DNA from: a virus
Strand: one strand, 5' to 3'
DNA length: 64,000 nucleotides
Virus genome (UHGV): UHGV-0371537
Numbering within the stretch: position 1 is the first letter of the stretch; every line of letters begins with the position of its first letter. A model generated the notes under the pieces. The model saw only the letters and a list, made by a program, of their open reading frames with translations, ran no database searches and had not been told where the DNA came from. Shown here in pieces: positions 9,222 to 32,915 of this stretch. Position numbers and translations under genes: made by a program.

Positions 9222-9950
9222 ATGAACGCACAGATCTATGACGCCCTTGAGCAGGGTAACGCATTTAACAATCCTCTCCCGTCCCTCAGCAGCACGTCAC
9301 AGGGTTTAATCACCAGTGGTAAGGCGACTACAGCTTCACTGGCTAACACAGGCGATACGCAAATCCAGGGCGCTCTGACGGCAGGTGGGCTTACCACAGC
9401 CAAACTGAACGAAGCAACCACTATGTTCAACTCTGCAGGTACGAGCCTCACCACCCTGAACAACTATGGTGACCAGACTGTCAGTGAAGCATATTCTCGG
9501 ATCGGGACTTCTGTTTCTTACAAATCTGGCCTGAAATCCATAGAGCGCGAGCCAACGAATTGTGATCTGATCAACAATGCATTCGGTGTCATTCAGACCC
9601 TTGGACGCCAGTGGATCGGTGCCATGGAGACCGCTCTCAGCACTGTCACGGCAAAAATGACCGAACTAGCCGAATTAGTAGCGCAGGGTGTGAGCGCAGG
9701 CCTGGCAAAGATCCAGGCGCTGGCTGCTGAGGTCACCGGGTACGTCAACACTGCCATAACTCAGGTCTCCCAGATAGCCCAGGATATTACGAGCGGTATC
9801 GCGGCAGAGCTAGCCCACATACAAGACATGGTTAGCAAGTGTCTGAACTTCTCATTTGCTAACGTCCTGTCTGAGTGGGCTAAAGATCTATGTGCTGGTG
9901 GTGTTATCAACAACATCGGTTCAGATAATCTCAAGAGTGCGCTGAAGTAA
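9222..9950 (+). CDS. hypothetical protein, Thr/Ala/Ser-rich (possibly structural)
   Basis: 242 aa; behind CTAAATACC element and GGTATTTTCTT-ATG context shared with the endolysin gene. Confidence 0.5.
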   Translation: MNAQIYDALEQGNAFNNPLPSLSSTSQGLITSGKATTASLANTGDTQIQGALTAGGLTTAKLNEATTMFNSAGTSLTTLNNYGDQTVSEAYSRIGTSVSYKSGLKSIEREPTNCDLINNAFGVIQTLGRQWIGAMETALSTVTAKMTELAELVAQGVSAGLAKIQALAAEVTGYVNTAITQVSQIAQDITSGIAAELAHIQDMVSKCLNFSFANVLSEWAKDLCAGGVINNIGSDNLKSALK

Positions 9951-10592
9951 TCAACGCTCCCTCGCCGGAAGAACTCCCACTGGCTCGATACCATCCAACA
10001 GTAGGGAGTTCACACCCACATTACTCAGTCTAATCCAGATCGTTCCCCCTGGGTTAACTTCAAAGATATTCATCTCATTCCCAACTGCGTCGTTGTTGAC
10101 AAACACACCCTGGGTTGCGATTCGTACTGGTTTATCTGAGTCATTCATGATTTTGAACGTCACGATTATATCCGATGTTGTACCCAGTCGCCCAACCATG
10201 TGTTGCTTCAGCTTGGCGTAGAATGATGGATTAAAAGTGATGATAATGCTGTTGTTCTGAGAGTAATAAATACTTGCTGATAGGTATGGAATCTTCCCTT
10301 CGTCGCCACGCCGCAGGAGGGGAATCGTGGTCTTCCAGTAAGGCTTGAGGGTGCTCGTGTTCTCCTCGAAGCAACCTAAAGGTACGAGCTTCTGGAAGGT
10401 CTGGAACTCTTGCACGATGATGTCCAGAATACCCTTGTTACAAGTGGGAACACTGGCCGACAACGTCACAGGTACGGTGCGTACTTCTGGGTTCCAGAGT
10501 TCGGAAACAGAAATTATTGGCGTGACAAAGATGCGACAGCTCGTGAGTAAGAGCATCGCGCATGCCAACAACAATCTACTGATCCCGCGCAT
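9951..10592 (-). CDS. predicted lipoprotein (possible envelope or superinfection-exclusion factor)
   Basis: Minus-strand ORF; ATG at 10592 gives MRGISRLLLACAMLLLTSC with lipobox L-T-S-C; convergent with the upstream + gene. Confidence 0.55.
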   Translation of the reverse strand: MRGISRLLLACAMLLLTSCRIFVTPIISVSELWNPEVRTVPVTLSASVPTCNKGILDIIVQEFQTFQKLVPLGCFEENTSTLKPYWKTTIPLLRRGDEGKIPYLSASIYYSQNNSIIITFNPSFYAKLKQHMVGRLGTTSDIIVTFKIMNDSDKPVRIATQGVFVNNDAVGNEMNIFEVNPGGTIWIRLSNVGVNSLLLDGIEPVGVLPARER

Positions 10593-10630
10593 CAGGGTCA
10601 CAAAATATCTCCACAGCAAAAGGTGCTATT

Positions 10631-11131
10631 ATGTCCGACGTACAATTCAAGAACGAAAACCCTAATTTTGCGGCGTCCGATAAGTGGCGTTTATCTATCG
10701 GAGACCTTGTACTCGTGTCCCGCAACATCCATGACTTCAGCATCCCTGGCTTGTATTCCGAGGGTATCGATGGTCCATCACCCGGTGACGTTCTCGTTTC
10801 CATATCTTCAGAACGTATCACATATGACCCCGTCGTATTTACTTTCGTAATCGATGAGGACTGGAAAACTTGGTTGGCGTTACACAACTGGATCCGCTCA
10901 AACGTCAAGCTGGACCAGCCTGTGAGCAAAGACATCACAATTGACTTGCTGGACAACCTCAATCGCCCCATCGGGCTGACTTTGGTGTTACAAGAATCAC
11001 GCCCAACTGCTCTTGACAACGTGTTGGTAGACGTGGATGCTGCTGTGCCTCAGCTGGTGTCGACTGTGACGTTCAAATTCCAGGAGATGGTGCCGACTCT
11101 TGTGAGCCGTGAGATAGATTCTAATCCGTGA
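10631..11131 (+). CDS. hypothetical protein
   Basis: 166 aa, AAGGTG RBS; no recognisable motif. Confidence 0.5.
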   Translation: MSDVQFKNENPNFAASDKWRLSIGDLVLVSRNIHDFSIPGLYSEGIDGPSPGDVLVSISSERITYDPVVFTFVIDEDWKTWLALHNWIRSNVKLDQPVSKDITIDLLDNLNRPIGLTLVLQESRPTALDNVLVDVDAAVPQLVSTVTFKFQEMVPTLVSREIDSNP

Positions 11132-31914: not shown

Positions 31915-32601
31915 ATGAAACGTTTAATCCTCGGGGTCGTGCTGGCTGGTCTGGCATTACCCGCCGCCGCCAAGCTGAACTCCACAGGTGACAAACTGTG
32001 GTCTGATCTTTCCTACTGTGCTGGGTTCTCCCAGGCAGTCGCCATCGACAAGTCTGGTTCCATAGAGAACTTTGCTGAACTCTGGAACACGGGCAACGTC
32101 TCCACTGCTGTGGTCAATGCTGGGATTGAGTTCAACCGTTACAAACAGGGAGCCTATAACCTCAAGGGCTACCTCAATGACGATGAATTTAATCGAGGCG
32201 GAATGGAGGCTGGCGATTTGATCATGACTGGCCGAATGGGCACCCAAGGCCGAATGACAGTCAGACAGTGCCGTTCGCTTCCTTCTCCGGCATTACAGAA
32301 GGGTGTGCAGATAGGCCGCCGTCACCTGAACCTCATCAACGATGGCAACCAGTGCATCAAAGTATTCGAATACAGCGCTACACAGACCTCTGATCGCGTC
32401 CTGAAGAAGGAATGGCGTACTCGCGCTCTTGGTCTCAGAGCCTGGCTGGTTGAGAACGATCATTATTTTGAGGATCGTGTTCAGAACGGTCTGAAAGACC
32501 TGGCCACGAATCTGAGCGTGAACCTTGATGATCCTCGCATGTCGCGCGAACTTCAGCAGACTCGTGTTGACTGCGACAATATGATGAAGGAGAACGAGTG
32601 A
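31915..32601 (+). CDS. secreted protein with Sec signal peptide
   Basis: MKRLILGVVLAGLALPAAA signal peptide; AAGGAG RBS. Confidence 0.55.
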   Translation: MKRLILGVVLAGLALPAAAKLNSTGDKLWSDLSYCAGFSQAVAIDKSGSIENFAELWNTGNVSTAVVNAGIEFNRYKQGAYNLKGYLNDDEFNRGGMEAGDLIMTGRMGTQGRMTVRQCRSLPSPALQKGVQIGRRHLNLINDGNQCIKVFEYSATQTSDRVLKKEWRTRALGLRAWLVENDHYFEDRVQNGLKDLATNLSVNLDDPRMSRELQQTRVDCDNMMKENE

Positions 32602-32915
32602 TGAAAGGTAAAATCCTACTCCTGCTGTTACTGATGACCGGGTGTGTAAACGCTACACCACCGTCTAAACTGAATACCTGCGCCGCCTGGATGGAGACGT
32701 ATCAGCAGTTCCACCCAGATGACAAAGATACATCTATCCTCCTGTCTGACTTCGAGGGGGAGCTGAAGCGCCTTGATCTGTTCAGTGTTGATCAGATAGA
32801 GAATGCGCTGGATCTTCCCATGATGCTGACTGCGGCTGATAACAGCCCACAGACGAAGAAAGATCTGATGTATTGCCGGGGGATTGCCCAAGACTTTGTT
32901 GGCGTTTCAAAATAG
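32598..32915 (+). CDS. predicted lipoprotein
   Basis: MMKGKILLLLLLMTGC with lipobox L-M-T-G-C; ATGA overlap with upstream secreted-protein gene. Confidence 0.55.
   Translation: MMKGKILLLLLLMTGCVNATPPSKLNTCAAWMETYQQFHPDDKDTSILLSDFEGELKRLDLFSVDQIENALDLPMMLTAADNSPQTKKDLMYCRGIAQDFVGVSK

Follow-up and report, generated by a model that had tools for sequence, protein, structure and literature searches.

The gene studied here, which lies on the minus strand of a 64,000-nucleotide stretch of the virus genome UHGV-0371537 (hereafter the window), is very probably a functional core gene of the Ackermannviridae that is homologous to lipoproteins encoded on bacterial chromosomes. Over this region, the DNA shares 88-89% identity with Salmonella phage SKML-39 and Shigella phage Ag3 and 81-87% with other Aglimvirinae, which places the window in an Ackermannviridae phage (Ag3/SKML-39-like), a distinct mosaic relative. 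The encoded protein matched the Pfam family DUF7424 (PF24199) across profile positions 2-196 of 196, with 199.9 bits against a gathering threshold of 27 bits (E = 4.8e-59), and also matched phrog_3832, labeled "unknown function" (E = 1.4e-99). It shows 98% amino acid identity to the orthologues of Ag3 and SKML-39 and 63-65% to those of Kuttervirus, and it has the length, lipobox, cysteine pair, C-terminal motif, and head-to-head position with gp3 in common with its orthologues throughout the Ackermannviridae. The orthologues include Ag3 orf00172, Vi01_141, LIMEstone1 ORF128, Sajous1 gp167, and a "conserved hypothetical lipoprotein" of Maynard. The feature itself is already known, as several GenBank records carry it as "putative lipoprotein" or "conserved hypothetical lipoprotein", and searches of the literature on DUF7424, on Ackermannviridae/Kuttervirus transcriptomes, and on CBA120 gene essentiality returned nothing. 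What this study adds to an otherwise ordinary, already annotated conserved hypothetical gene are its bacterial homologues, a phage-specific C-terminal motif, and promoter-like boxes embedded in the gene and in gp3, together with the useful negatives that the gene is neither a moron nor a spanin gene and that its product is apparently not part of the virion.

A preliminary description of this DNA had pointed to a minus-strand gene among plus-strand genes as the only plausible one at this place, and the open-reading-frame listing bears this out with a frame at 9951-10619 on the minus strand, the sole minus-strand gene between approximately 7.8 and 13.9 kb. Read from the ATG at 10592, the protein is MRGISRLLLACAMLLLTSC, exactly as had been given. 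This ATG is codon 4 of a 216-amino acid form (MTLMRGISR...) and lies 9 nt downstream of a GTG at 10601. The GTG is probably the start, because it is preceded at 7 nt by a GGAG sequence, because the 216-amino acid form is annotated for the orthologues in Ag3, LIMEstone1, and ZQ1, and because the internal ATG is not conserved; the Kuttervirus orthologues have Ile as the fourth residue (MFLIRG...), so that only the upstream start is conserved. The gene and its ribosome-binding site are thus placed as follows.

9951-10601, minus strand: DUF7424 lipoprotein gene of 216 codons plus a TGA stop (9951-9953) with a GTG start at 10601, based on the reading frame and sequence, PF24199, phrog_3832, dN/dS, and annotated 216-amino acid orthologues.

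10609-10612, minus strand: Shine-Dalgarno sequence GGAG, 7 nt before the GTG at 10601, based on the sequence.

The TCTCCA at 10608-10613, which overlaps the Shine-Dalgarno sequence, is among the longest invariant runs in an alignment of seven taxa. Comparison with Ag3, CAU_YEP3, and JA15 gave dN/dS values of 0.04-0.09 with dS up to 1.0-1.2, and the reading frame is under strong purifying selection. With the Pfam score and the lipoprotein signal described below, these values place the gene beyond what chance would give.

The N-terminus has the features of a bacterial lipoprotein precursor, which we assessed with a rule of the PROSITE PS51257 type (a basic n-region, an uncharged hydrophobic core, and a lipobox [LVI][ASTVI][GAS]C with the Cys at positions 15-35). 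The sequence conforms to this rule with R5 and R9, an uncharged core LLLACAMLL of about ten residues, and the lipobox LTSC, which the preliminary description had also read and which corresponds to L19-T20-S21-C22 in the 216-residue numbering.

10539-10601, minus strand: signal peptide, residues 1-21 (MTLMRGISRLLLACAMLLLTS), predicted from the positive charge of its n-region and from its hydrophobic core.

10536-10547, minus strand: lipobox L19-T20-S21-C22, with Cys in every full-length sequence aligned and Arg as the next residue.

9954-10535, minus strand: predicted mature periplasmic domain, residues 23-216, based on an AlphaFold2 model.

10440-10442, minus strand: Cys54, which does not vary in any phage alignment and presumably pairs with Cys77 in a disulfide.

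10371-10373, minus strand: Cys77, invariant in phage and bacterial members.

9963-9992, minus strand: C-terminal motif G204-I-E-P-V-G-V-L-P-A213, based on alignments.

By this rule, the precursor would leave the cytoplasm through the Sec pathway, receive its lipid at Cys22, and be processed by signal peptidase II. The rule was passed by 64 of the 78 DUF7424 family sequences, and the 14 failures involved gene calls with a truncated start, an N or P residue at -2, or, in one sequence with a short n-region, an over-strict check for K/R. In the alignments, every sequence that includes the N-terminus has the lipobox Cys, whether from enterobacterial, Vibrio, or Aeromonas phages or from the bacterial relatives. 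The residue at position +2, next to the Cys, is R here; among the 64 sequences that conform to the rule, only R and K occur at this position, and none has D. According to the enterobacterial Lol +2 rule, the lack of Asp at this position predicts transfer to the outer membrane, and the R/K residues therefore lead to a prediction that Lol transfers the phage lipoprotein there. Retention in the inner membrane is possible in light of the structural model, which has no flexible tether; many outer-membrane lipoproteins use a disordered linker. Cys54 and Cys77 are kept in all phage members and in nearly all bacterial ones, and two invariant cysteines fit a disulfide formed in the periplasm, suggesting a Cys54-Cys77 bond. 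Within the C-terminal motif, G204, E206, and P212 are invariant across the phage clade, and the pattern G-I-E-P-V-G-x-x-P was not found in the bacterial relatives aligned.

The distribution of the gene was examined by tblastn, which found the lipoprotein in 294 phage records. Its counts equal those of gp3 for phages of Salmonella (164), Klebsiella (44), Escherichia (29), Dickeya (19), Serratia (10), Shigella (6), Erwinia (4), Enterobacter (3), and Aeromonas (3). Vibrio phages are the exception, with 72 records for gp3 against 9 for the lipoprotein, which is only approximately 25% identical there; in all three Vibrio phages inspected (K476, VAP7, and K352), a divergent antisense lipoprotein gene is found at the same place. 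In every genome inspected, the gene stands head-to-head with the series gp3-uvsY-exonuclease-uvsW, and this synteny is kept in Agtrevirus, Limestonevirus, Kuttervirus, Taipeivirus, Miltonvirus, Nezavisimistyvirus, and Vapseptimavirus as well as in Vibrio and Aeromonas phages. Delftia phage PhiW-14, a relative outside the Ackermannviridae with the same gp3/uvsY/uvsW cluster, has no lipoprotein gene beside gp3.

These data bear directly on the proposal, made in the preliminary description, that the gene is a moron-like acquisition such as the receptor blockers of the T5 Llp type. This virulent phage does indeed carry a real lipoprotein gene in antisense orientation, and a recent moron of the Llp/Cor type, masking a specific outer-membrane receptor, would agree with that orientation, with a presumed transcription unit of its own, and with the lipoprotein signal. 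By contrast, morons are patchy in presence and atypical in base composition, whereas this gene occurs in 294 records and in the three divergent Vibrio phages inspected, matches gp3 in its counts per genus except in Vibrio, holds a constant head-to-head position, and has a G+C content of 0.47-0.48 in a window of 0.495 with flanks of 0.46-0.53. The suggested comparison of related phages for presence or absence at the locus found a conserved reading frame in all genomes inspected within the Ackermannviridae. Membership in the Llp type fares no better: in searches of Pfam, PHROGs, and NCBIfam for Llp/Cor homology, only DUF7424 and phrog_3832 matched (in Pfam and PHROGs, respectively), a comparison with viral structure models showed no relation in fold, and the mature protein of 195 amino acids is three times the size of the approximately 60 residues of Llp and Cor. 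Nor is the gene linked to, or co-varying with, tailspike or receptor-binding genes; gp3, uvsY, exonuclease, and uvsW always adjoin it, and it is conserved across hosts with different receptors. The moron reading is thus largely refuted by the distribution, and we consider it highly improbable.

Bacterial relatives were collected by an exhaustive HMM search, which gave 381 bacterial-homologue cluster representatives at E ≤ 1e-3. Among the best 150 of these 381, most are approximately 200-250 amino acids long, and most of those fetched have a "GCK" lipobox. All ten representatives tested matched Pfam DUF7424 (E from 1e-17 to 4e-39), and an hhalign comparison of the phage and bacterial profiles covered the full length with a probability of 99.85% (E = 1.4e-30). 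The genes lie in ordinary chromosomal settings. In one case, leuA, dsbB, and motAB-type genes surround the homologue on a scaffold of 349 kb, and in another, the contig also carries topA, murB, and nuo genes. A genome scan with a three-sequence alignment located further DUF7424 loci in Halomonas sp. SpR1 and Methylophaga sp. UBA3192; the genome scan with a single protein as the query found no loci. One bacterial relative is fused to ankyrin repeats. Like the phage clade, the bacterial DUF7424 lipoproteins have a lipobox whose +2 residue is basic, both cysteines of the pair, and the motifs NDT and LSDV, but they are only 15-25% identical, lack the phage C-terminal motif, occur in unrelated chromosomal contexts, and in some cases have extra domains. 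The simplest history would be that an ancestor of the Ackermannviridae captured a bacterial envelope lipoprotein, which has been retained since, always head-to-head with gp3.

An alternative explanation is that the phage copy replaces, supplements, or antagonizes the function of bacterial DUF7424 proteins; it could, for example, preserve the integrity of the envelope through the latent period or dampen an envelope-based stress or defense response. The full-length homology to chromosomal lipoproteins with the common lipobox, Cys pair, and NDT and LSDV motifs speaks for this explanation, as does the conservation of the gene in phages whose hosts range from Enterobacterales to Vibrio and Aeromonas. 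On the other hand, no common gene neighbor of the bacterial genes was found across four contexts, the lipoprotein had no matches to the PADLOC models of defense systems, and the C-terminal motif of the phage clade suggests that its function has diverged. We therefore regard host mimicry as rather unlikely.

The AlphaFold2 model of the mature protein, built with a deeper alignment, had a pLDDT of 84.4 and a pTM of 0.81. In the model, the 195-amino acid domain is a compact fold of an alpha/beta part and a beta-sandwich with approximately 13 strands and 5 helices, and the first strand (mature residues 2-10) follows directly after the lipidated Cys, leaving no disordered tether. A Foldseek search of the modeled fold against viral models matched DUF7424 proteins only, and no hydrolase-like fold was found for the lipoprotein. 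The modeled fold gives no functional clue.

We then considered the lipoproteins that phages are known to make for lysis. O-spanins of the lambda Rz1 and T4 PseT.3 types are likewise phage lipoproteins predicted for the outer membrane, but they have a partner gene and a short, largely unstructured, proline-rich domain, whereas the DUF7424 protein has a 195-residue folded domain (pLDDT 84), and no gene for an i-spanin-like membrane-protein partner, adjacent or embedded, was found at its locus. A separate spanin pair is present elsewhere in the window, and the candidacy of the DUF7424 lipoprotein as the o-spanin was rejected.

31915-32601 and 32601-32915: spanin pair, based on phrog_3843 ("Rz-like spanin"); the i-spanin candidate (31915-32601) is a 228-amino acid membrane or periplasmic protein, and the o-spanin candidate (32601-32915) is a 104-amino acid lipoprotein with the lipobox LMTGC that matches phrog_3843.

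The gene is flanked on both sides by genes for virion structural proteins.

10631-11131, plus strand: gp3, tail completion/sheath stabilizer gene, based on phrog_45 (tail) and the annotations in relatives.

9222-9950, plus strand: DUF7217 virion structural protein gene, based on Pfam PF23854 (E = 5.9e-98).

This position between gp3 and DUF7217 would suit a virion or assembly protein with an uncleaved hydrophobic N-terminus. In LIMEstone1, ORF127 (gp3) and ORF129 (DUF7217) are "confirmed structural proteins", and ORF128 was not detected (PMC3296691); the annotation of ORF128 reads "putative signal peptide present". In CsCl-purified virions of Sajous1, gp166 (DUF7217) and gp168 were found with 8 spectra each, and gp167 is missing from a list deep enough to include contaminants represented by one spectrum (PMC10892097). 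The absence of the lipoprotein from two proteomes that detected both of its neighbors is negative evidence and suggests that it is not built into virions. An abundant Sajous1 virion protein, "gp215", named beside a "tail completion protein", was considered as a candidate for the lipoprotein, but BLASTP showed no relation; the lead also fails in that the numbering of the paper is that of GenBank, the homologue being gp167, which is outside the virion list. The invariance of the lipobox Cys and of the Cys pair, and the fact that the bacterial homologues are ordinary lipoproteins, likewise speak against a virion component, and we assign this explanation a very low probability.

The arrangement of the gene with its neighbors was next compared with the signals for its expression. 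In the enterobacterial members, the DUF7217 gene is the convergent neighbor, and here the two stop codons abut (TAA at 9948-9950 on the plus strand, TGA at 9951-9953 on the minus strand). The DUF7217 gene is not at the locus in the Vibrio and Aeromonas phages inspected, where capsid and homing-endonuclease genes (Vibrio) or hypothetical genes (Aeromonas) are found instead. On the other side, the spacer between the starts of the lipoprotein gene and gp3 is 23-63 bp across the relatives and 29 bp here, and in the enterobacterial phages it holds little beyond two back-to-back ribosome-binding sites. The opposite orientation implies that the lipoprotein gene has its own promoter, and the spacer is so short that both promoters must sit within the coding sequence of the partner. 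Only a candidate late-type box and a weak hairpin were seen as transcription signals of the lipoprotein gene itself; these and a candidate box for gp3 are listed here.

10835-10842, minus strand: GTAAATAC, candidate late-promoter-like -10 box within gp3, approximately 234 nt upstream of the lipoprotein start.

10267-10273, plus strand: TAAATAC, candidate gp3 promoter within the lipoprotein gene, approximately 358 nt upstream of gp3.

9932-9964, minus strand: hairpin across the abutting stop codons, a weak possible terminator of the minus transcript, based on folding.

The box GTAAATAC is kept at synonymous sites in eight of the nine genomes, from four genera, in which the site was found, and it ranks among the three longest stretches without variation in the seven-taxon alignment of the 1.2-kb region. 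Its core is identical to that of the late promoters in the LIMEstone1 annotation. In Aglimvirinae, Kuttervirus, and Taipeivirus, both GTAAATAC and the TAAATAC at 10267-10273 are conserved at synonymous sites. In the window, TAAATAC occurs ten times against 3.25 expected, a threefold excess that none of 100 shuffles reached, and half of the ten copies sit 18-36 nt before plus-strand starts. A candidate gp3 transcript starting from 10267-10273 would be antisense to the 5' half of the lipoprotein mRNA. If both embedded boxes are used, the lipoprotein gene would be expressed late, and the two mRNAs would carry a complementary leader of approximately 550 nt; being sequence patterns, the boxes are a lead rather than a demonstration. 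A promoter and terminator scan found neither a sigma-70-type promoter nor an intrinsic terminator at the lipoprotein gene. The T4 late consensus TATAAATA is also absent there, and it is not enriched in the window (two matches against 0.54 expected, a number reached by 8 of 100 shuffles). The hairpin at the junction is not significant (z = -0.95) and was not called in the terminator scan; the Ag3 annotation has a stem_loop at the same place. The sequence ACTATAT, which emerged from an analysis of k-mers enriched upstream of genes, was rejected as a promoter, as it lies directly before start codons and corresponds to the ribosome-binding spacer.

In virulent phages, the well-documented tasks of such exported envelope proteins are spanin function and exclusion. 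Llp and Cor block entry for T5-like and lambdoid phages, as Sp and Imm do for T4, and exclusion genes are typically variable and expressed early. We propose that the DUF7424 protein goes back to an envelope lipoprotein of a host that became fixed in the family ancestor; it would be made in the infected cell and act in the periplasm. The mature lipoprotein would stay in the envelope of the infected cell and may block a step of phage entry after adsorption. Such a block could protect the infected cell from superinfection by siblings, the released progeny from losing their DNA to envelope debris, or both. Its target would be a conserved one, either the tail-tip and injection proteins of the family itself or a conserved component of the envelope, rather than a variable surface receptor; a conserved target is favored because the gene is kept regardless of the host genus and the primary polysaccharide receptor and because a C-terminal motif is particular to the phage clade. 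We put forward this whole statement of identity, export, and entry block with limited confidence, somewhat below an even chance, and the mechanism of entry block, taken by itself as self-exclusion and/or progeny protection, is a tentative reading of the analysis.

Among the known systems, the receptor-masking lipoproteins Llp of T5 and Cor of phi80, N15, and HK022 are possible functional analogues. However, they vary with the receptor, whereas the DUF7424 gene is a conserved core gene and is not beside a receptor-binding gene. The functional model that we favor is that of T4 Sp (spackle) and Imm, envelope proteins retained in a lineage of virulent T4-like myoviruses that block the entry of siblings through the injection machinery of the phage itself and not through the receptor. 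These T4 proteins differ from the DUF7424 lipoprotein in that they are small, early, and not lipoproteins, and no homology between them was detected.

Against the entry block, the gene belongs to the conserved core, the only promoter-like signal upstream of it is of the late type, and no sigma-70-type promoter was seen. Taken together, the core status and the late-type signal fit a role at the time of lysis, or in the protection of progeny, better than classical early superinfection exclusion. As an accessory of lysis, the protein may aid or time the disruption of the envelope, through modulation of the spanins or endolysin or through a weaker tethering of the outer membrane. It is a lipoprotein as o-spanins are, the late-type GTAAATAC with its conservation at synonymous sites is the only promoter-like element upstream, and core status suits an essential step of the life cycle better than a gene in an arms race. 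Nevertheless, the window already has a complete spanin pair elsewhere, the gene is outside any lysis cassette and has no adjacent or embedded partner, and the folded domain of 195 residues is neither a short proline-rich o-spanin nor of a hydrolase-like fold, so that we judge an accessory function in lysis to be rather unlikely. Returning to the entry block that we favor, its most far-reaching form would be a new kind of envelope factor, derived from the host and with a fold unlike solved structures, that all Ackermannviridae retain because it neutralizes the injection apparatus of the family or a conserved envelope component from the periplasmic side and whose expression may be coupled to gp3 through mutually embedded promoters and complementary leaders of approximately 550 nt; this extended version is speculative, and we think it unlikely to hold in full.

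Given the core status of the gene and its bacterial homologues, comparisons of presence and absence are uninformative, and it would be useful to delete the gene, to express it by itself, and to look for its binding partner. Ackermannviridae of the Vi01, CBA120, LIMEstone, and Ag3 types find wide use in phage therapy and in biocontrol, and about half of the genes of the family are without known function. An exported core lipoprotein is a sensible candidate for a factor in superinfection control, in the compatibility of phages in cocktails (mutual exclusion), in lysis behavior, and in the survival of progeny.

The lipoprotein gene and gp3, the tail completion gene lying head-to-head with it, have different affinities. 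Compared with Shigella phage Ag3, the lipoprotein (98% amino acid identity) and UvsY (99%) of the window are Ag3-like, whereas gp3, located between them, is 84% identical to Ag3 and 95% identical to Yersinia phage CAU_YEP3; dS between the lipoprotein genes of the window and CAU_YEP3 is approximately 1. Because gp3 resembles CAU_YEP3 and its two flanking genes resemble Ag3, the sequence comparison suggests that 9951–11131 is a mosaic junction whose recombination joint falls within or close to the 29-bp spacer between the two divergent genes. At the other end of the lipoprotein gene, its stop codon (TGA, 9951–9953) abuts that of the convergent DUF7217 gene (TAA, 9948–9950), and a modest hairpin (9932–9964) encloses both. 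The fold of this hairpin was statistically no better than that of shuffled sequences (z = −0.95); a stem-loop is annotated at the equivalent place in the Ag3 record.

DUF7424 genes, the family of the lipoprotein gene, were located in two related phages and four bacterial sequences:

L005, 2447–3118: Erwinia phage phiEa2809, present but unannotated
L004, 2441–3106: Serratia phage KNP4, present
L014, 10001–10768: bacterial gene
L016, 6285–6932: bacterial gene
L018, 6001–6630: Halomonas sp. SpR1
L019, 6001–6567: Methylophaga sp. UBA3192

The phiEa2809 record has a gap between NW77_100 and NW77_101 where the gene sits, and its gp3 gene call appears too short; the KNP4 record is without any annotation. 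For phage Sajous1, gp214 was named "tail completion protein" in Table 6 of the study that proposed a "ferrojan horse operon" from gp214–217 (PMC10892097). GenBank MW021757 instead lists gp214 as a hypothetical protein of 795 aa and has gp168 as the tail completion protein of the gp3 type. Lipoproteins bearing a GCK lipobox and encoded on bacterial chromosomes also belong to the DUF7424 family, and one metagenomic member has ankyrin repeats at its C-terminal end. The four chromosomal loci had no gene neighbors in common. The Halomonas locus may be a prophage remnant, since XRE-type and S24-peptidase-like genes adjoin the DUF7424 gene.

Elsewhere in the window, two genes form a spanin pair, the stop codon of the first overlapping the start codon of the second at 32601:

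31915–32601, +: 228 aa, N-terminal hydrophobic segment, phrog_4260 (unannotated)
32601–32915, +: 104-aa lipoprotein, lipobox LMTGC, matching phrog_3843 "Rz-like spanin"

Two short motifs were overrepresented in the window, namely, ACTATAT (8 copies versus 3.1 expected) and TAAATAC (threefold enriched):

14597, 16004, 30590, 33962, 45125, 58868, +: ACTATAT
10267–10273, +: TAAATAC within the lipoprotein coding region, directed at gp3
10835–10842, −: TAAATAC-containing box within the gp3 coding region, directed at the lipoprotein gene
2842, 9188, 11605, 12370, 52507, +: other TAAATAC copies

In at least four ACTATAT copies (30590, 33962, 45125, and 58868), a start codon follows immediately and a GAGGAAA-type Shine–Dalgarno sequence precedes; ACTATAT looks like a preferred ribosome-binding spacer, not a promoter. 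TAAATAC is usually positioned 18 to 36 nt upstream of a gene start, a placement like that of the annotated late promoters of LIMEstone1. Both embedded TAAATAC copies are kept at synonymous sites in several genera. Should the two copies both be active, the leaders of the lipoprotein and gp3 mRNAs would be complementary to each other over approximately 550 nt.
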